A stretch of DNA of 23,341 bases, counting the filler, from an uncultured virus (IMG/VR IMGVR_UViG_2061766007_000905) (taxonomy: Duplodnaviria > Heunggongvirae > Uroviricota > Caudoviricetes). It is 3 parts of one record of this genome, joined end to end, with 100 filler letters (N's around TTAATTAATTAA, not from the genome) between each part and the next. Parts side by side here need not be neighbours in the genome. Positions count along the whole stretch, not along the records: positions 15,050 to 22,025 come from IMGVR_UViG_2061766007_000905; 2 more parts are not named here. The stretch is one strand, 5' to 3'. The position numbers and the translations under genes are program-made. The notes under the pieces were generated by a model. The model did no database searches, was not told the DNA's origin, and saw nothing but the letters and a program-made list of their open reading frames with translations. Shown here in pieces: positions 2,191 to 22,330 of this stretch (the stretch's first letter is position 1; each line of letters opens with the position of its first letter).

Positions 2191-3469
2191 CTACTCTGCA
2201 ATATGCTTAATATATCCAATAGCATTAGCCTTAAGCTCGCTTTCAGTCCCATACTTGTATTCATGTGCAATTACGAGACTAGAAAAGATGTTAAGATAAT
2301 GCCAACGTCTTACTTCAGTAAGCATTCTACCAAATTTCGGACCTTGATATCCGCATTCGGCTACAGCCTCGCTAAGGACATGGTTAAACGGAGCTGCAAT
2401 CTTTGCGACTTTAATAATTCTATCAAGAAGTTCTTTATCGACTCGGAAACCGGTTACGGCATCAGCAAGTTCCTGGAGCTGGTTAAAAAACTTATTATTA
2501 ACCATATCGACTTCTGCTACAATATCGTGACCAAAGTCTTGGAATTTATCGAGGTGATTAAAGCACCATTGGGCACATTTAAAGGTCTCGTTTTCCATCT
2601 TATAGTGTTGATATGCATTTCGTAAATCGGACTCCCAGAGCATGCATACGAGCGAACCAAGGTCAGTAAAGAACTCACCCATCTTATTATTTTTCCTGAT
2701 TGCACGACCACCGATTAAATTACGAGCCTTTACAGCATTGATGTAACCTTTCGGGTCAATAATCTGAAAAATACCATCAGTAACCATGTGGTCAATCATC
2801 TCATAAAGTTCAGAATAACCATAACTCATGCACTTCTTGATTTCATCGAAGACACGTTCCATAGCAATGTTAGCCAACTTATACTTAGTCTTACGAATTG
2901 CTTCTCTAACATCATCAGGAATAGTCATCTTGAACCTAGACGCAAAGCGATAGGCTCGAATGATACGTAAAGCGTCTTCTTCGAAACGTTCAGCTGGATC
3001 ACCAACTGTGCTAAGAACTTTATCTTCTAAGCACTTGATACCATTATGATAGTCGATTACATTACCATCAGCATCAATACCCATAGCATTGATAGTGAAA
3101 TCACGACGAGCCGTATCTTCCTTAAAAGACTCAGTAAAAGTAATAGAGTCAGGGTGACGACCATCAGTATATGCACCATCAGTTCTGAACTGAGTAGTTT
3201 CGAAATAAATATCATTCCACTTCACGAGAATAGTCCCGTGAACTTCACCATTATTGCTAGCAGTCTTAAACTTAGCCTTGAGCATTTCAATAGGCATGTT
3301 AGTAGCAATATCGACATCATGGATATTAGCATTATCAACCATATCCAACGTATGCATTATGATATCTCTTACACAGCCACCGACAAGATATGCCTCATAA
3401 CCGTAACTGTTAATTACTCTGCAAAGGCAACTACCGCCAAAAACTTCATAATTATATTTCGATACATCA
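2191..3469 (-). CDS. cca: CCA-adding tRNA nucleotidyltransferase (class II), 5' end in gap
   Basis: Frame is open upstream of the ORF-track start and gives YEAYLVGGCVRD; also DVDIAT, RTDGAYTDGRHP, RRDFTINAM, RFEEDALRIIRAYRF. Confidence 0.9.
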
Positions 3470-13694: not shown

Positions 13695-13776
13695 GATAAA
13701 ATTTAGAGCGTCTNNNNNNNNNNNNNNNNNNNNNNNNNNNNNNNNNNNNNNNNNNNNNNNNNNNNNNNNNNNNNNN

Positions 13777-14536: not shown

Positions 14537-14567
14537 AAAAAAGATTCCTGTGAGTTGCACAGGAATC
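14537..14567 (-). terminator. attenuator terminator before tRNA-Asp
   Basis: GATTCCTGTG-CAACT-CACAGGAATC-TTTTTT. Confidence 0.8.
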
Positions 14568-14592: not shown

Positions 14593-14649
14593 CTAGATGA
14601 CCCTGTGCTTGTGTCGATCCTTATCATGCTTACCGAAACCTCGTCCGTC
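14593..14649 (-). CDS. leader peptide, 5' partial: DGRGFGKHDKDRHKHRVI*
   Basis: Frame shared with 14878-14949, with synonymous differences GGT/GGC and CGA/CGT. Confidence 0.7.
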   Translation of the reverse strand, partial: DGRGFGKHDKDRHKHRVI

Positions 14650-14816: not shown

Positions 14817-14851
14817 TAAAAAATGATTCCCGTTTTTACACAGGAATCATT
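14817..14851 (-). terminator. attenuator terminator before tRNA-Asp
   Basis: AATGATTCCTG..CGGGAATCATT followed by T run. Confidence 0.8.
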
Positions 14852-14877
14852 CTTCAAAAACTTTATACAGTTTAATA

Positions 14878-14949
14878 CTAGATGACCCTGTGTAGGTAAC
14901 GATCCTTATCATGCTTGCCGAAACCTCGTCCGTCGCGGCGAGTCTTGCA
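14878..14949 (-). CDS. leader peptide, 5' partial: CKTRRDGRGFGKHDKDRYLHRVI*
   Basis: Translated by hand; start lost at contig end. Confidence 0.7.
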   Translation of the reverse strand, partial: CKTRRDGRGFGKHDKDRYLHRVI

Positions 14950-14993: not shown

Positions 14994-15005
14994 TTAATTA
15001 ATTAA
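14994..15005. other. artificial contig linker
   Basis: TTAATTAATTAA embedded in N run (stops in all six frames). Confidence 0.9.
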
Positions 15006-15056
15006 NNNNNNNNNNNNNNNNNNNNNNNNNNNNNNNNNNNNNNNNNNNNTATTTAG

Positions 15057-15129
15057 TACTCCGTCCCAGATTCGAACTGGGGTTAACCGATAGAAAGTCG
15101 GTTGGCTTGAACCACTGGCCGAACGGAGC
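15057..15129 (-). tRNA. tRNA-Glu(TTC)
   Basis: ACCGA-CT-TTC-TA-TCGGT; identical to 19167-19239. Confidence 0.85.
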
Positions 15130-15133
15130 ATAT

Positions 15134-15166
15134 AAAAGAAAAGTTCCTGTGTTTGTGCACAGGAAC
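15134..15166 (-). terminator. attenuator terminator before tRNA-Glu
   Basis: GTTCCTGTG-CACAAA-CACAGGAAC-TTTTCTTTT. Confidence 0.8.
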
Positions 15167-15194
15167 CGTAAATTCTCAAATACTCGGTAATTAC

Positions 15195-15293
15195 CTATGC
15201 ACGTAGCCTTGACATAAATTCGGCAAATTCGCGACCTGCGAATGCGGCGCGTTCTGCTGCAAAAAATTCATGTTCAAACTTAGTCATAGTCAT
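15195..15293 (-). CDS. leader peptide MTMTKFEHEFFAAERAAFAGREFAEFMSRLRA
   Basis: 32 codons, 18 are E/F/A; AAAGGT RBS; stop lies within antiterminator GTGCATAGG. Confidence 0.8.
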   Translation of the reverse strand: MTMTKFEHEFFAAERAAFAGREFAEFMSRLRA

Positions 15294-15453
15294 TTTGTTA
15301 CCTTTTATATTATATATAAAAATTTTTTCCTGTTTNNNNNNNNNNNNNNNNNNNNNNNNNNNNNNNNNNNNNNNNNNNNNNNNNNNNNNNNNNNNNNNNN
15401 NNNNNNNNNNNNNNNNNNNNNNNNNNNNNNNNNNNNNNNNNNNNNNNNNNNNN

Positions 15454-15501
15454 CGTTCTTACTTCAATTTATTGATCGTGTCTAGCAGACATTCATTTAA
15501 C
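15454..15501 (-). ncRNA. 5' part of structured ncRNA homologous to 19648-19782
   Basis: GTTAAATGAATGT..CTAG..ACGATCAATAAAT shared; TTTACA-17-TATATT promoter upstream. Confidence 0.55.
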
Positions 15502-15579
15502 GATATATAATATAGTAAATTATTACCTGTTTGTAAACCCCTAAAAATAAAATTATTTTTTCTGCTACCCTCAATCTAC

Positions 15580-17113: not shown

Positions 17114-17395
17114 NNNNNNNNNNNNNNNNNNNNNNNNNNNNNNNNNNNNNNNNNNNNNNNNNNNNNNNNNNNNNNNNNNNNNNNNNNNNNNNNNNNNNNN
17201 NNNNNNNNNNNNNNNNNNNNNNNNNAAATCTAGTTGGACTATTAAGAACATATTTCTGTTCTAATTTTATACCGCCAAATTTTATTGCAATAGTAATACC
17301 TTTAAAAAATGCATCTGGTTCATCACTAACTTTCATTTCACAAACATTAAATATATCTGTCATGTTTGGCTGAATGACAGTAAGCNNNNNNNNNN

Positions 17396-18149
17396 ACCTG
17401 TTGGGTTACAACCGAGAACTAATCCACCATTCTTTTCGCCAATCTTTACAGTTGTTCCTTTACGATATTCTGTATTCCATGTATCATTGCAATCACCACT
17501 TACAGAATAGGAATTATTACCTGCTCCCTTACCAGGAATATCGAAATCTTCAGCTTCAATTACTTCACCAAGATTAAATGCTGTTCCCTTAAATGGCTTC
17601 TGCGGTTCAGGTTCAACAATCGTTACACCATCACCAGTTGGAAGACCAGTAGAATTTACGCCTTTATTATCCTTCAAATAAGACTTCAACCATGTCATTG
17701 CTGCTCTATCTTGGTTATTCTTGATAATACCAGATGTTCCGCTATTCCAAGTTGCACCATAAATATAACCCCAAAGAGTAATACCAGCAATATGTTCATT
17801 TTCCATAAAGTAAGAAATCTGTTCCTGATAGCACTGCTTCTGAATATTATCATCATCTGTGAAAATATCGTATTCACTAATGAACATTGGCATCTGAGTC
17901 TTATTCCAAATTTCTTCAATTACAGACTTCAATGTATTAATATTTAAGCAAGAACCACCGCCGCCAGTTCCGCCGTTTCCACCACCTTGGCTCATCATAT
18001 CATGAGCTTGAAGACCATAAGCATCAACTGGAGCACCTTGCTGTTTCAATTTATTAATTAAGTCAATTCCTTCGTTCTTTTGCCATTGAACTGTATTATA
18101 ATCATTATAAATCAAAATTGCATCCGGCCAACGTTCTCTTGCCATCTTA
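17396..18149 (-). CDS. GH10 endo-xylanase C-terminal half plus start of a CBM, both ends in gaps
   Basis: LIYNDYN, DAYGLQAH, PMFISEYD (nucleophile Glu), GITLWGY, then IEAEDFD CBM6-like start. Confidence 0.85.
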
Positions 18150-18161
18150 AANNNNNNNNNN

Positions 18162-18695
18162 CTTTCTATTTTTACTTATTTTACATTTTCTTGCGATAGA
18201 CCAAAGTTCATTACTATTAAATACATTTCTTCCTTCAACCCAAAAATCTTCTACAGGTTTTTCTTTAAACTTTTTACTTTCGCCTGTATTCCTATTTGTA
18301 TACCATTTAGTACCAAATTGTGAATTAAGATTTCCTGATTGTTTTATACTTGTTAATTCTCCAACAGTTTTTATAAATTCCATACGTAAAGCTTCATATG
18401 CTCGAGAATTTATATAACGACACTTTTCTTTGGTTGATTGCCCTTGCATTCGCCAAAGTGCACATAACATTTTATGTCTTTCAACAGTTCCTTTATTATA
18501 CATTTTAACTAGTAACCAATGACAGATAAAATGTTCACGTGCCGTTAATTTAACAAGGTTTTCTTTATCGTTTGTGCCTCCTAAAGACTTTGGTTGAATA
18601 TGATGTTTTTCATAATAACCTACAAGTCTGTTTCCATTTTCAGTTTCCTTTTTTGCATTTTCAATTATCTTATAATATATAGCTTTGTAATTCAT
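18162..18695 (-). CDS. HNH homing endonuclease, 3' end in gap
   Basis: YYEKHHIQPKSLGGTNDKENLVKLTAREHFICHWLL. Confidence 0.85.
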
Positions 18696-18755
18696 ATATT
18701 ATATATAATTCTTCGTTTTCCGAACTCGTAATTTCATTATTGCGAATTCTTTTCG

Positions 18756-18826
18756 TGGACCTACGGAGAGTCGAACTCCGGCGAACAGAATGCAAATCTG
18801 CAATGCTACCATTACATCATAAGCCC
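18756..18826 (-). tRNA. tRNA-Ala(TGC)
   Basis: GCAGA-TT-TGC-AT-TCTGT; G3:U70, A73. Confidence 0.88.
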
Positions 18827-18837
18827 ATAATGTTTAG

Positions 18838-18911
18838 TGCCTCCCCTCAGAATCGGACTGAGCTACTCCGGGCTTCAACCGGGTCCAATCACCAGGTTTG
18901 GATTGAAAGGC
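18838..18911 (-). tRNA. tRNA-Phe(GAA), atypical
   Basis: CCGG-TT-GAA-GC-CCGG; divergent D arm and T loop TCCGATT. Confidence 0.65.
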
Positions 18912-18920
18912 ATATTTTAG

Positions 18921-18994
18921 TGGACCTGACGGGGAACGATCCCGTAACCTTTAGCTTGCAAAGCTACTGCGCTACCAAATTGCGCCACAAGCCC
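18921..18994 (-). tRNA. tRNA-Ala(TGC)
   Basis: TAGC-TT-TGC-AA-GCTA; G3:U70, A73. Confidence 0.88.
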
Positions 18995-19002
18995 ATATTT
19001 AG

Positions 19003-19075
19003 CGGGACCGGTAGGAATCGAACCTACGACGCTTGGCTCTTCAGGCCAACGCTCTACCTACTGAGCTACAGTCCC
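19003..19075 (-). tRNA. tRNA-Phe(GAA)
   Basis: TTGGC-CT-GAA-GA-GCCAA; full cloverleaf. Confidence 0.92.
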
Positions 19076-19084
19076 AAATTTTCG

Positions 19085-19156
19085 TGGATACATATCGGAT
19101 TCGAACCGATGCCCTCTGAGTGCAAATCAGAGATACTCCCATTATACTAATGACCC
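19085..19156 (-). tRNA. tRNA-Ala(TGC)
   Basis: TCTGA-TT-TGC-AC-TCAGA; G3:U70, bulged acceptor stem. Confidence 0.8.
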
Positions 19157-19166
19157 AAATTTTTAG

Positions 19167-19239
19167 TACTCCGTCCCAGATTCGAACTGGGGTTAACCGA
19201 TAGAAAGTCGGTTGGCTTGAACCACTGGCCGAACGGAGC
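19167..19239 (-). tRNA. tRNA-Glu(TTC)
   Basis: ACCGA-CT-TTC-TA-TCGGT. Confidence 0.85.
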
Positions 19240-19253
19240 AAATATTGTTTTTT

Positions 19254-19284
19254 AAGTGGTGTCTCCACTACTGGACTACCAGCA
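19254..19284 (-). pseudogene. remnant 5' half of a tRNA
   Basis: GCTGG-TA-GTCCAGTAGTGGAGAC-ACCAC-TT resembles acceptor 5' strand and D arm, then stops. Confidence 0.4.
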
Positions 19285-19290
19285 AAGTAT

Positions 19291-19324
19291 AAAAGAAAAG
19301 TTCCTGCGCATTGTGCACAGGAAC
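19291..19324 (-). terminator. attenuator terminator before the Glu/Ala/Phe tRNA operon
   Basis: GTTCCTGTGCA-CAA-TGCGCAGGAAC-TTTTCTTTT. Confidence 0.82.
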
Positions 19325-19350
19325 CGTTTTTTCAAACTTATTTAGGTTAA

Positions 19351-19464
19351 CTACCTAATCCTATGCACTGTATCTGAACAAAATGCTTCAAACGCTGCAG
19401 CTGCGAATTCAGCTGCGGCACGTTCTGCTGCAAAAAATTCATGTTCAAATACGTTCATAGTCAT
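19351..19464 (-). CDS. leader peptide MTMNVFEHEFFAAERAAAEFAAAAFEAFCSDTVHRIR
   Basis: 37 codons, 21 of codons 6-28 are E/F/A; AAAGGT RBS. Confidence 0.82.
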   Translation of the reverse strand: MTMNVFEHEFFAAERAAAEFAAAAFEAFCSDTVHRIR

Positions 19465-19526
19465 TTTTGTTACCTTTATATTATATATAAAAAATTTTTC
19501 CTGTTTTTTGTTATTTTACGTTGTTA

Positions 19527-19555
19527 AATATAGTAAAAAGTTTTTGGTTTGTCAA
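19527..19555 (-). promoter_or_regulatory. sigma70 promoter of leader/tRNA operon
   Basis: TTGACA-17-TATATT. Confidence 0.7.
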
Positions 19556-19579
19556 CCCCTTTTTAAAATATTTTTTTAG

Positions 19580-19643
19580 TGGGAAAGCAGGACTTTAACC
19601 TACAACATGCACGATGGCCGCTCTGACATTGAGCTATTTCCCA
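19580..19643 (-). ncRNA. tRNA-like RNA lacking a proper anticodon arm
   Basis: GGGAAA/TTTCCC acceptor, GCTC/GAGC D stem, GTAGG/CCTGC T stem; only 16 nt between D and T arms. Confidence 0.55.
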
Positions 19644-19647
19644 TGAT

Positions 19648-19782
19648 ATTAAAATAAAATGTTCTGAAGGAATCCCGATTCTCCACCTTCATGTAAGACC
19701 GTTCTTGCCGGTAATTGGCAAGCTGACCGCAACGCCGTCCTTACGTCTATTTATTGATCGTTCTAGCGAACATTCATTTAAC
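19648..19782 (-). ncRNA. unrecognised ~135 nt structured RNA
   Basis: Own TTGACA-17-TATATT promoter (19790-19818); closing stem AAATGAATGTTC/GAACATTTTATTT; inner stems GTAAGGAC/GTCTTAC, CTTGCC/GGCAAG, TGAAGG/CCTTCA. Confidence 0.6.
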
Positions 19783-19840
19783 AAGATTAAATATAGTAAA
19801 AAGTTTTTGATTTGTCAACCTTTTTTAAAATATTTTTTAG

Positions 19841-19952
19841 TGGGGAAAGCAGGATTCGAACCTACGACGCACGCCTTGAGATGAAAAATAGGAACGTTAT
19901 ATGCATTACTACGTAACGTAATACCGTTGCTCTACCACTGAGCTATTTCCCC
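19841..19952 (-). ncRNA. tRNA-like RNA with anticodon arm replaced by a ~55 nt insert
   Basis: Canonical acceptor GGGGAAA/TTTCCCC, D and T arms; insert contains GTATTAC/GTAATGC hairpin and GTTCCTATT. Confidence 0.65.
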
Positions 19953-22025: not shown

Positions 22026-22069
22026 NNNNNNNNNNNNNNNNNNNNNNNNNNNNNNNNNNNNNNNNNNNN

Positions 22070-22081
22070 TTAATTAATTAA
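22070..22081. other. artificial contig linker
   Basis: TTAATTAATTAA embedded in N run. Confidence 0.9.
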
Positions 22082-22126
22082 NNNNNNNNNNNNNNNNNNN
22101 NNNNNNNNNNNNNNNNNNNNNNNNNT

Positions 22127-22330
22127 GGTCCGGCAGATGAAGGACTTACCAAATACGTATTGCCTAAGATTATTTCTAACGAAGCATATACCAAGACCGG
22201 AAAATTCAATTCCGGTTATCTTAGGGATGCAATAACCGAAATTTACGAAACTGAAAATATGCCGGGAATTCTTAAGTTCTGCAGAGAATTCTTGAAACCG
22301 ATTCTTGAAAGAAATTCGACAATGTGCTAG
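22127..22330 (+). CDS. 3' end of hypothetical protein
   Basis: Open frame GPADEGLTKY...RNSTMC*. Confidence 0.5.
   Translation, partial: GPADEGLTKYVLPKIISNEAYTKTGKFNSGYLRDAITEIYETENMPGILKFCREFLKPILERNSTMC

Follow-up and report, generated by a model that had tools for sequence, protein, structure and literature searches.

A giant ruminant-gut phage probably makes each set of its tRNAs only when ribosomes read the matching codons slowly. In the window, the whole 23,341-nucleotide stretch of DNA analysed here, a short Glu/Phe/Ala-rich open reading frame (ORF) and an intrinsic terminator lie between a promoter and an array of Glu, Ala and Phe tRNA genes, and it is likely that this unit is a ribosome-sensing, trp-type leader-peptide transcription attenuator gating a block of phage tRNAs, rather than biosynthetic enzymes. 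Comparative analysis strongly supports this interpretation, which was first proposed in a first-pass annotation of the same DNA, through the correspondence between leader codons and tRNA arrays in two related phage genomes (G001, complete at 424 kb, and G002, both being approximately 420-kb genomes), and through a recurring antiterminator and terminator architecture. The same design, using other codons and other stems, appears to gate other tRNA blocks of this phage clade.

Organisation of the leader-tRNA unit

The unit comprises the following features, in minus-strand order.

19527..19555, minus strand: sigma-70-type promoter TTGACA-17-TATATT, heading the leader-tRNA unit, 11/12 consensus matches
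19473..19489, minus strand: AT-rich conserved element TATATATAATATAAAGG, 8 nt 5' of the leader ATG
19351..19464, minus strand: leader ORF of 37 codons (37 aa), MTMNVFEHEFFAAERAAAEFAAAAFEAFCSDTVHRIR, ATG at 19464, TAG stop at 19353-19351
19361..19460, minus strand: predicted long hairpin of the ribosome-free leader (the '1:2' pairing), codons 2-8 pairing with codons 29-35
19359..19368, minus strand: antiterminator strand GTGCATAGGA, within the final leader codons, immediately 5' of the stop
19289..19325, minus strand: intrinsic terminator, stem-loop 19325-19299 and T-run 19298-19289 TTTCTTTTAT, -18.1 kcal/mol
19240..19288, minus strand: spacer with element GCTGGTAGTCCAGTAGTGGAGACACCACTTAAAAAAC, between the T-run and tRNA-Glu
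19166..19239, minus strand: tRNA-Glu(TTC), ARAGORN and Rfam
19086..19156, minus strand: tRNA-Ala(TGC), ARAGORN and Rfam
19002..19075, minus strand: tRNA-Phe(GAA), ARAGORN and Rfam
18920..18994, minus strand: tRNA-Ala(TGC), ARAGORN and Rfam
18835..18912, minus strand: putative non-canonical tRNA-like RNA, anticodon loop UUGAAGC (GAA, Phe), from cloverleaf fold and conservation
18755..18826, minus strand: tRNA-Ala(TGC), the last array gene, ARAGORN and Rfam

The promoter, leader and terminator of the first-pass annotation were all recovered. The promoter scan is weak on its own (48 sites against 36.8 +/- 6.9 in shuffles); an identical promoter sequence heads the homologous units in loci L001, L002 and L004. 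The scan found no further promoter-like site on the minus strand from 19527 to 18691, including between the terminator and the tRNAs. The AT-rich element, also found 5' of most leader families in G001 and G002, could be either a Shine-Dalgarno-like AAAGG with an enhancer or a second promoter. AAAGG lies 8-12 nt 5' of the leader ATG, and AAGGA/GGAG motifs likewise precede gene starts in the window.

The leader has the composition that had been annotated: 21 of the 23 codons from 6 to 28 encode Glu, Phe or Ala, the exceptions being H8 and R15 (P(>=21 of 23) = 4e-14 against a background share of 0.18, from 3975 codons in 18 window ORFs). Glu is encoded by GAA in 5/5 cases, Phe by TTT/TTC and Ala by GCN. 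Under strict wobble rules the array tRNAs read 18/36 codons of this leader, with GCC and GCT unread unless U34 is modified. The terminator stem has 12 pairs, six of them G-C, and a loop of 3; across the window, 16 such combinations of hairpin and T-run were detected, against 6.6 +/- 2.5 in shuffles. The spacer element is missing from a second copy of the unit in the window, and a similar element lies 5' of tRNA-Pro in G001.

tRNA genes were called independently by ARAGORN and Rfam. The array had been annotated as Glu, Ala, Phe, Ala, Phe, Ala, and the two tools agreed on five of these genes, but neither called a second tRNA-Phe(GAA) in the gap at 18827-18919, for which, as for the leader, Rfam returned nothing. 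The gap RNA folds as a cloverleaf (z -0.14, such that energy alone is uninformative) and is conserved in two other loci with one compensatory acceptor pair, and we read it as a putative non-canonical tRNA-like RNA with a GAA anticodon.

Further leader units lie in the same window.

15195..15293, minus strand: second, diverged Glu/Phe/Ala leader MTMTKFEHEFFAAERAAFAGREFAEFMSRLRA, a paralog of the leader at 19351..19464
15142..15167, minus strand: second-copy terminator, followed by TTTTCTTTTATA and then directly by tRNA-Glu
15056..15129, minus strand: second-unit tRNA-Glu(TTC), from ARAGORN, with the sequence past it masked
14878..14949, minus strand: 3' part of an Asp/Lys/Gly/His leader, ending in CKTRRDGRGFGKHDKDRYLHRVI and a stop, 5' part masked by N, full ORF in G001
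14821..14852, minus strand: terminator 5' of tRNA-Asp 14813-14738, from the hairpin scan
14593..14649, minus strand: 3' part of a second Asp/Lys/Gly/His leader, ending in DGRGFGKHDKDRHKHRVI and a stop, full ORF in G002
14543..14567, minus strand: terminator 5' of the array Asp, Asp, Gly, Gly, Lys, Lys, His (14531-13622), from the hairpin scan

The peptide of the second copy has diverged yet is still rich in Glu, Phe and Ala. The copy retains GTGCATAGG in a different reading frame, with its TAG stop inside GTGCATAGG, suggesting that conservation acts on the RNA. As its tRNA starts directly after the T-run, this array would be expressible by read-through only.

RNA-library contigs from four runs (three studies) cover the leader of the first unit; one, X6 record 24, spans the terminator (19517 to 18837), which in a contig is not evidence of transcription, and several have ends at 19288/19289 yet carry on into strain variants, which is not evidence of 3' ends. 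Such contigs show neither 3' ends, strand nor level, and may reflect DNA carry-over; hence they were not used as evidence.

Competing RNA structures

The first-pass annotation held that the antiterminator strand is complementary to the 5' arm of the terminator, making the two pairings mutually exclusive. This was borne out: GTGCATAGGA pairs with TCCTGTGCAC in the 5' arm at -18.1 kcal/mol, a value reached by none of 300 dinucleotide shuffles (-8.5 +/- 2.4). This strand spans -16 to +9 nt relative to the stop codon. The ribosome-free leader (19290-19479) folds at -65.2 kcal/mol (z -6.54, 0/200 shuffles as stable), and the predicted hairpin 19460-19361 includes GTGCATAGG, such that the antiterminator strand would be sequestered when the leader is untranslated.

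The same architecture recurs across units with differing sequences. In 13/15 units the antiterminator duplex is stronger than in 300 shuffles (fraction <= 0.033), and in the other two it is no better than shuffles (fractions 0.267 and 0.073), these 15 units being seven families with close homologs rather than independent cases. The antiterminator strand lies between -17 and +12 nt from the stop codon in the units tested, the terminator follows the stop at 24-34 nt in 14/14 units listed, and the hairpin is 4-60 nt 5' of the first tRNA.

Folding the leader with and without a ribosome footprint, as the first-pass annotation had suggested, gave a divided result. In nascent RNA lacking the 3' arm, a ribosome stalled mid-leader leaves the antiterminator helix as the minimum-energy fold in 9/9 units (-9.7 to -26 kcal/mol), whereas with a ribosome at the stop this helix is worth only 0 to -3.2 kcal/mol in the nine units; in the window unit it forms with the stalled ribosome and not with the ribosome at the stop. 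However, equilibrium folding under a sliding ribosome mask is mostly static, with a terminator probability of approximately 0.9 or more at nearly every position in 7/9 units, and switching was seen only in the Asn/Pro/Thr/Tyr unit and partly in the Asp/Lys/Gly/His unit. Hence the switch would have to be kinetic, as in trp, and the structural case is built on nascent-RNA folds and duplex statistics.

Correspondence between leader codons and tRNA arrays

Seven IMG/VR loci were retrieved by a degenerate pattern, and in all seven the Glu/Phe/Ala leader lies 5' of an array restricted to Glu, Ala and Phe: downstream of the leader, ARAGORN made 63 calls, 58 of them Glu, Ala or Phe and 5 '???(ga)'. 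Nine Glu/Phe/Ala copies share an unchanged antiterminator strand and terminator 5' arm but differ in the 3' arm and loop, the pattern expected of a 5' arm that takes part in two pairings.

In G001 and G002, every array examined is preceded by its own leader, spelled in the codons of that array. Read in frame, the seven G001 leaders match their own arrays at 104/180 codons, whereas the two other frames give 22/187 and 29/187 (12-16%); the six G002 leaders match at 91/168, against 18/174 and 25/174 out of frame. The true pairing of leaders with arrays is the single best of 5040 permutations in G001 and the best of 720 in G002. Two hairpins were discarded as leader terminators, L008 9600-9617, which lacks both an immediately following T-run and a matching ORF, and L009 14747-14772, which falls within a tRNA T-arm. 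Dropping these merges arrays, and counts are given with and without the merges: with stricter, unmerged arrays, the G001 value is 2 of 5040 permutations. The codon-anticodon correlation among homologs, on which the first-pass annotation had staked its reading, is thus strongly positive in both genomes.

The correspondence extends to synonymous codons, the choice of which fits the array isoacceptor in 30/30 codons of the G001 leaders.

Lys: AAG 4/4 with array tRNA Lys-CTT; AAA 2/2 with Lys-TTT
Gln: CAG 3/3 with Gln-CTG; CAA 2/2 with Gln-TTG
Ser: AGY 5/5 with Ser-GCT; TCN 7/7 with Ser-GGA/TGA/CGA
Ile: ATT 4/4 with Ile-GAT; ATA 3/3 with Ile-TAT

Several of these choices run counter to the phage's own codon preference, and the Gln/Lys/Arg leader of G002, whose array contains both Gln tRNAs, uses both CAA and CAG. 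Leader paralogs retain composition and not sequence. Approximately 42-46% of all leader codons in the two genomes have no match in the array, three leader families share Arg CGN codons for which the arrays have no cognate tRNA, and the Tyr/Cys/Ser leader of G002 has an in-frame TAA at codon 9. An Rfam search of the G+C-rich sequence separating tRNAs in G001 found nothing.

Proposed mechanism and alternative explanations

We infer from this organisation that the leader is translated, that stalling leads to read-through, and hence the direction of the switch. Transcription would begin at the promoter (19555-19527), with the 37-codon leader translated as it is made, a mechanism that presumes coupling of transcription and translation in the host. 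With rapid decoding of the Glu, Phe and Ala codons, the ribosome would reach the TAG stop and cover GTGCATAGGA, allowing the hairpin 19325-19299 to form, and RNA polymerase would halt at the T-run without making tRNA. When charged tRNA-Glu, -Phe or -Ala is scarce, the ribosome would stall in codons 6-28, opening the long leader hairpin and leaving GTGCATAGGA free to pair with the terminator 5' arm before the 3' arm is transcribed, such that polymerase reads through into Glu-Ala-Phe-Ala-(Phe-like)-Ala. Without a ribosome, the leader would fold on itself and the terminator would form. The tRNA products should relieve the stall, and the loop would therefore be a negative feedback on decoding capacity. 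Its natural trigger could be cleavage of host tRNAs, or plain demand or amino-acid shortage.

The leader might instead encode an ordinary small protein and have a terminator of its own, with the tRNAs supplied by constitutive leak-through and the composition reflecting a peptide function, such as an amphipathic or membrane helix. The leader peptides do have a helical appearance, that of the Leu/Ser/Trp leader, MKMLSLTILLLSSLLLSWLL, is similar to a membrane segment, and equilibrium folds favour the terminator throughout. Yet this account, to which we give very little credence, leaves unexplained why seven and six unrelated peptides use the codons of their own arrays (1 of 5040 and 1 of 720), why synonymous choice follows the isoacceptor (30/30), why paralogs keep composition without sequence, and why a terminator-complementary strand lies at each stop codon. 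Similarly, it is highly improbable that tRNA is sensed by the leader RNA itself, with no ribosome involved, through specifier triplets pairing with anticodons in the fashion of a T-box. Many leader triplets are complementary to array anticodons, and the leader is highly structured, but the match is limited to the one frame that runs from the ATG behind AAAGG to the stop (104/180 in G001, against 22/187 and 29/187), the strand competing with the terminator sits beneath the footprint of a terminating ribosome, and no T-box or other known leader family was detected at E <= 1.

A further alternative accepts the architecture and has translation of the leader act elsewhere, with the hairpin serving as a processing or stability site of the tRNA precursor, or with reverse polarity, fast translation causing read-through. 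The hairpin is indeed only 4-60 nt 5' of the first tRNA, where 5' processing must occur, and there are unexplained conserved spacer elements. However, G+C-rich stems with immediate T-runs are the signature of intrinsic terminators, and their excess in the window (16 against 6.6 +/- 2.5 in shuffles) makes a processing site unlikely; reverse polarity is also unlikely, as the stop lies 24-34 nt upstream, from where a terminating ribosome would reach the antiterminator strand only, and not the hairpin, thereby fixing the polarity.

Distribution in other phages

The expectation that short ORFs and terminators precede phage tRNA arrays held in the clade genomes and in part beyond them. In the cultured Cellulophaga phage phi4:1, 2/3 tRNA blocks have the same design: the block 1 leader, beginning MKIQRLHLQELEQP, has 11 consecutive matched codons (array Pro, Glu, Gln, His, Leu, Leu, Arg), the block 2 leader has 15/26 codons matched (array Ala, Lys, Ile, Gly, Met, Asp, Thr, Val, Arg, Met, Tyr), and in both a hairpin and T-run lie 25 nt past the stop. 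The two ORFs are at record positions 87065-87133 and about 88025-88108. These leaders may be leaderless, with the ATG just after a TAnnTTTG-type box, and phi4:1 is an independent lineage with the same design. The expectation failed in block 3 of phi4:1, where gp076, considered as a leader, has 6/32 codons matched and no clear terminator, and in phage T5, where none of the 12 annotated small CDSs beside tRNA genes (12/12) is enriched in the amino acids of the neighbouring tRNAs. The design may span unrelated phages, giant rumen phages with sigma-70-type promoters and this marine Cellulophaga phage with Bacteroidota-type promoters.

Among cultured phages, a DNA similarity search gave tRNA-sized matches only and no relative of the leader. 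When the Rfam models were run over the entire window with cmscan at E <= 1, nothing beyond tRNAs and weak chance hits emerged, and neither a Trp, His, Leu, Thr or Phe leader family nor a T-box was among them. Of the 114 loci listed in a broad viral-contig scan for AT-rich TATATATAATA-N(1-4)-AAAGG, three were from this clade, and the scan was not used for counts. The literature search found no description of leader-peptide attenuation for tRNA genes, in agreement with the first-pass annotation, which knew of none for phage tRNA arrays.

Relation to known regulatory systems

The trpL, hisL, leuL and pheL leaders, and the multivalent thrL and ilvGMEDA leaders, each have a promoter, an ORF rich in control codons, 1:2, 2:3 and 3:4 hairpins and an intrinsic terminator, with stalling leading to read-through. 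In E. coli, the pheST attenuator with its pheM leader controls phenylalanyl-tRNA synthetase by sensing charged tRNA-Phe. The pheST system therefore resembles the phage unit in placing a leader-peptide attenuator over a component of the translation machinery, but regulates a protein, the synthetase, rather than a tRNA, and responds to a single amino acid. The E. coli tRNA-Phe genes pheV and pheU were considered for a leader of their own; they have approximately 105 nt upstream, with no annotated leader.

The window leader shares with the enterobacterial amino-acid leaders, of which pheL (PMC3082878) and the his leader (PMC4046918) are examples, a promoter, a short control-codon ORF and competing hairpins ending in a terminator, and shares with thr and ilv the use of several amino acids in one leader. 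It differs in that its cargo is tRNA genes and not enzymes, the product acting directly on the step that is sensed; in that its control codons are chosen among synonyms to fit single isoacceptors; and in that one phage has at least 6-7 leaders, one per tRNA block. It has no sequence similarity to the Rfam leader families. T-box riboswitches, for which PMC10327191 mentions a terminator/antiterminator mechanism, likewise read a specific tRNA state before translation-related genes, but bind uncharged tRNA directly, free of the ribosome, through a conserved T-box sequence, whereas the phage signal is frame-specific and no T-box was found in the window. The mycobacterial polycysteine attenuators, leaderless short ORFs that tune downstream genes by cognate amino-acid supply according to bioRxiv 10.1101/834739, share a short ORF at the transcript start, rich in the control codon, but carry cysteine metabolism genes and respond to one amino acid.

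The tRNA arrays of phages, often large, are commonly regarded as constitutive cargo that corrects a codon-usage mismatch or replaces tRNAs destroyed by host defences. According to PMC12409363, the tRNAs that some viruses encode serve to counteract immunity directed at tRNAs. Such accounts, like ours, have phage tRNAs restore decoding after host tRNA cleavage, but they address the presence and sequence of tRNAs, and the literature search found no codon-sensing switch over tRNA synthesis. Demand-driven tRNA supply could conceivably be a general phage strategy, in which block-wise 'test ORFs' sample each encoded isoacceptor, sense the loss of host tRNAs, including that caused by anticodon nucleases and other tRNA-targeting defences, and switch on the replacement set that is needed, a counter-defence trigger working through decoding, although we hold this broader idea only tentatively.

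If the attenuator operates as proposed, the leader would gauge how fast ribosomes decode and release the corresponding tRNA block, feeding back directly on translation capacity, and this would be the first attenuator to yield the very molecule that it senses. Such control would explain the sorting of tRNA genes into fixed isotype sets in these phages, the small 'hypothetical proteins' found among tRNA genes, such as gp075 of phi4:1, and how a phage could answer tRNA-cleaving immunity within minutes. A further use of the leaders could be as natural, modular sensors of single-isoacceptor supply.

Organisation of the Glu/Phe/Ala unit

The first-pass annotation had proposed a codon-matched leader peptide that controls a phage tRNA operon (Glu/Phe/Ala) by attenuation, and its promoter, leader ORF, terminator, codon bias and antiterminator complementarity were all confirmed at the main unit.

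Features of the main unit
19555-19527, minus: promoter, TTGACA-17-TATATT
between promoter and leader ORF, minus: conserved AT-rich stretch with AAAGG at its end
19464-19351, minus: leader ORF of 37 codons, MTMNVFEHEFFAAERAAAEFAAAAFEAFCSDTVHRIR
19325-19299, minus: terminator hairpin of 12 pairs, then TTTCTTTTAT
array, minus: 49-nt spacer, then tRNA-Glu(TTC), Ala(TGC), Phe(GAA), Ala(TGC), 93-nt gap, Ala(TGC) (ARAGORN, Rfam)

Glu, Phe and Ala account for 21 of the 23 codons at leader positions 6-28 (P = 4e-14, given a background Glu+Phe+Ala share of 0.18 over 3975 codons), and GAA is used for all five Glu codons. The antiterminator strand GTGCATAGGA (19368-19359) pairs with the terminator 5' arm at -18.1 kcal/mol, against -8.5 +/- 2.4 kcal/mol for shuffled sequences, none of 300 being as good. 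A second Phe(GAA) gene had also been placed in the array, and this part stood only partially: the 93-nt gap between the last two Ala(TGC) genes yielded no tRNA call by ARAGORN or Rfam, even when searched alone, yet its minimum-energy fold is a cloverleaf with the anticodon loop UUGAAGC. Two other loci keep the element, where the acceptor stem shows one compensatory change and one that is one-sided, and it is best regarded as a tRNA-like RNA of non-canonical form with a GAA anticodon. The Glu/Ala/Phe array of G001, a related phage genome, contains additional Ala(TGC)- and Phe(GAA)-like tRNAs of non-canonical form that were missed by ARAGORN.

The window holds further units of this type.

Other leader units in the window
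15293-15195: diverged paralog of the Glu/Phe/Ala leader, MTMTKFEHEFFAAERAAFAGREFAEFMSRLRA
15167-15142: the paralog's own terminator, with tRNA-Glu beginning right at the end of the T-run
14852-14821 and 14567-14543: related hairpins, each 5' of a tRNA-Asp

The paralog's peptide has drifted in sequence and retained its richness in Glu, Phe and Ala; GTGCATAGG is also retained, but in another frame and with the stop codon within it. Upstream of each of the two related hairpins is the visible 3' end of another ORF, ...DGRGFGKHDKDR..HRVI*, and the array downstream comprises Asp, Asp, Gly, Gly, Lys, Lys and His. An element GCTGGTAGTCCAGT(A/G)GTGG..CCAC(T/C)TAAAAAAC, which may be a processing signal, recurs directly 5' of some tRNA genes (window 19240-19288, minus; G001 locus L008 8940-8975) and is missing from the second Glu/Phe/Ala unit.

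Leader codons follow the anticodons of their arrays

A degenerate pattern for FEHEFFAAER, searched against IMG/VR, retrieved seven loci, of which three lie on contigs 291-424 kb long, and the promoter-leader-terminator unit is kept in all seven. Downstream of the Glu/Phe/Ala leader, the 63 ARAGORN calls comprised 58 Glu/Ala/Phe and five '???(ga)'. We analysed the tRNA regions of G001 (424 kb, terminal repeats, 100% complete) and of a second related genome, G002 (411 kb). An automatic search located 19 hairpins with a T-run within 200 nt on the 5' side of a tRNA, and ORFs terminating beside these sites were then listed.

Leaders of G001 and their arrays
MQLVVTTNVTPVNNPKVTFD: Asn, Pro, Thr, Met, Val, Leu
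MTYVMNTNNTNPNNNPEVLQD: Asn, Asn, Pro, Pro, Pro, Thr, Tyr
Glu/Phe/Ala leader: Glu/Ala/Phe
MTKFVVDTHDCKTRRDGRGFGKHDKDRYLHRVI: Asp, Asp, Lys, Gly, Lys, (Gly, His)
MKMLSLTILLLSSLLLSWLLRRSIVGTK: Trp, six Leu, Ser(GCT)
MNLQSYTSSCISICGQQSSIYCMYSIKTGG: Tyr, Tyr, Cys, Met, Ile, three Ser(NGA), Gln
MMSIRKQIRIRKQGSPWF: Arg(TCT), Gln(TTG), Lys(TTT), Met, Ile(TAT)

Each leader codon was scored by strict wobble rules against the tRNAs of its own array. Across the seven G001 leaders, 104/180 codons matched in frame, as against 22/187 and 29/187 in the other two frames, and the true leader-array pairing was the single best of 5040 permutations. In that run one array had been joined over a hairpin that was dropped, and two tRNAs had been assigned across the ends of the record; without either step the figure was 2 of 5040, at codon and isotype level alike. 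No phage-type promoter was found inside the merged array. The six G002 leaders gave 91/168 in frame, as against 18/174 and 25/174, with the true pairing best of 720. The expected correspondence among homologs between leader codons and array anticodons is hence borne out.

The agreement extends to synonymous codons, where the G001 choices for Lys (AAG 4/4 with Lys-CTT, AAA 2/2 with Lys-TTT), Gln (CAG 3/3 with Gln-CTG, CAA 2/2 with Gln-TTG), Ser (AGY 5/5 with Ser-GCT, TCN 7/7 with Ser-GGA/TGA/CGA) and Ile (ATT 4/4 with Ile-GAT, ATA 3/3 with Ile-TAT) fit the array tRNA in 30/30 cases. Several of these choices run counter to the codon preference of the phage itself (e.g. AAA 222 vs AAG 143, and ATT 207 vs ATA 49). 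All six Leu codons are present in the Leu leader, whose array carries five Leu anticodons, and the G002 Gln/Lys/Arg leader contains both CAA and CAG, with both Gln tRNAs in its array. Judged from sequence, we see no other explanation than that ribosomes on the leader ORFs would be meant to sample the tRNAs of the array.

The G001 Asn/Pro/Thr/Tyr leader (L008 10991-11056) is without its own promoter and lies within the operon headed by the Asn/Pro/Thr/Val leader; two attenuators appear to act in series here. Codon 9 of the G002 Tyr/Cys/Ser leader (locus L014 1300-1395) is an in-frame TAA and that of its G001 counterpart TCA; frame and composition are retained in the codons past it, and either a recent nonsense mutation or a fault in the assembly may account for the TAA. 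The G001 arrays also contain G+C-richer stretches, 150-650 nt long, that separate tRNA genes (L008 8700-10200, 16950-17110) and have no long ORF and no Rfam match.

Competing RNA structures

The fold of the window leader follows the same four-segment logic of competing pairings as the trp leader. Without a ribosome it reaches -65.2 kcal/mol (z -6.54), codons 2-8 pairing with codons 29-35 and GTGCATAGG being buried; hence an untranslated transcript should, on this model, terminate. In this scheme the unmatched N- and C-terminal leader codons form segments 1 and 2, and CSDT spaces the last control codon from segment 2. Across nine Glu/Phe/Ala copies, the antiterminator strand and terminator 5' arm are invariant and the loop and 3' arm variable, which fits a 5' arm serving two pairings. 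The stop codon lies 24-34 nt from the terminator stem in all 14 listed units, placing the hairpin out of the terminating ribosome's reach.

In 13 of 15 units, which represent seven families rather than independent cases, a strand located -17 to +12 nt from the stop pairs with the terminator 5' arm more favourably than 96.7% or more of 300 shuffles, the two exceptions scoring 0.267 and 0.073. With a ribosome stalled mid-leader and the 3' arm not yet included, the antiterminator helix is in the minimum-energy structure of the nascent RNA in 9/9 units; with a ribosome at the stop codon, folding leaves the terminator 5' arm free. Counting against a switch, equilibrium ensembles give the terminator a probability of ~0.9 at almost every ribosome position in 7/9 units. 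The proposed switch would therefore have to be kinetic.

Independent lineages

The comparison set comprised the tRNA region of the cultured Cellulophaga phage phi4:1, and phage T5. In phi4:1, the leader MKIQRLHLQELEQPIISGGTGV, with 11 consecutive matched codons, stands ahead of block 1 (Pro, Glu, Gln, His, Leu, Leu, Arg), and an ORF inside gp075 with 15/26 matched stands ahead of block 2 (Ala, Lys, Ile, Gly, Met, Asp, Thr, Val, Arg, Met, Tyr); a hairpin and T-run lie 25 nt past each ORF. Their antiterminator duplexes are of modest strength, at 4.7% and 7% of shuffles. No codon match was seen for block 3 (6/32), and nothing comparable was found among 12 small CDSs of T5. The E. coli tRNA-Phe genes pheV and pheU, inspected as well, have no annotated leader upstream.

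The block 1 leader is absent from the phi4:1 annotation. The gene gp075 (phi4:1 locus L132 4355-4474) is annotated as a 39-aa 'hypothetical protein' starting within a TATGTTTG promoter-like box common to the block 1 unit; the block 2 leader likely begins at a GTG downstream of this start.

Proposed mechanism

Codon-anticodon match, frame specificity and competing pairings support the attenuator interpretation, and we consider it quite likely that the main unit gates its tRNA genes by ribosome-sensing attenuation. When the leader is decoded fast, transcription would terminate; when the codons that a block serves are decoded slowly, antitermination and production of that block's tRNAs would follow, which would in turn relieve the stall. 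Natural triggers might include the late-infection rise in demand, host tRNA decay, amino-acid shortage or host tRNA-cleaving defences, whose existence is reported in PMC12409363. The proposed mechanism is of the trp type; what would be new is the tRNA cargo, the direct feedback, codon matching at the level of isoacceptors and a family of leaders within one genome. In the literature covered, in which subscription journals are thinly represented, leader-peptide attenuation was found for amino-acid and related protein-coding operons only, and none for tRNA genes.

Genomic surroundings

The window is phage DNA of 33% G+C with 16-18 tRNA genes (ARAGORN, Rfam) and genes for a T4-type terminase, a radical-SAM protein, a GH10 fragment, an HNH endonuclease and a member of the tRNA nucleotidyltransferase/poly(A) polymerase family (2191-3357, minus; PolyA_pol head domain, E 2e-25), the last of which fits a phage maturing its own tRNAs. 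Gut runs from cattle, sheep and goats contain near-identical DNA (20 rows, 15 studies). In the region 17360-18695 (minus), the HNH endonuclease gene (18695-18147) comes straight after the tRNA array and is directly followed by an ORF whose match to glycoside hydrolase family 10 is confined to the C-terminal part (positions 157-288 of the 311-position profile). N-masked blocks at 15000-15060 and 22030-22140 enclose TTAATTAATTAA, a six-frame stop linker, so that the window may consist of concatenated contigs; further short N masks are numerous (e.g. 15335-15453, 13727-13776).

Two tRNA-like genes with the acceptor GGGGAAA/GGGAAA, detected by Rfam alone, each have their own promoter without a leader ORF: one (19841-19952, minus; 112 nt, 50.3 bits) has a ~40-nt insert in the anticodon region, the other (19579-19643, minus; 65 nt, 40.6 bits) a shortened anticodon arm. 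A conserved promoter-driven non-coding unit (window 19650-19790 and 15450-15505, minus; L008 8215-8345), which may be a small RNA, is without an Rfam match; it starts TTAAATGA(A/T)TG..GATCAATAAA, and its end is a GAAGG..CCTTC hairpin followed by a T-rich tail. The motif GTTCCTATT, often palindromic as ATAGGAAGTTCCTAT, recurs in the spacers of tRNA genes and also within the insert carried by the 112-nt tRNA-like gene (window ~20010, ~19895, ~14715 and ~21950, minus; L008 10380, 10600, 10780 and 10850), and is possibly a recombination or endonuclease site.
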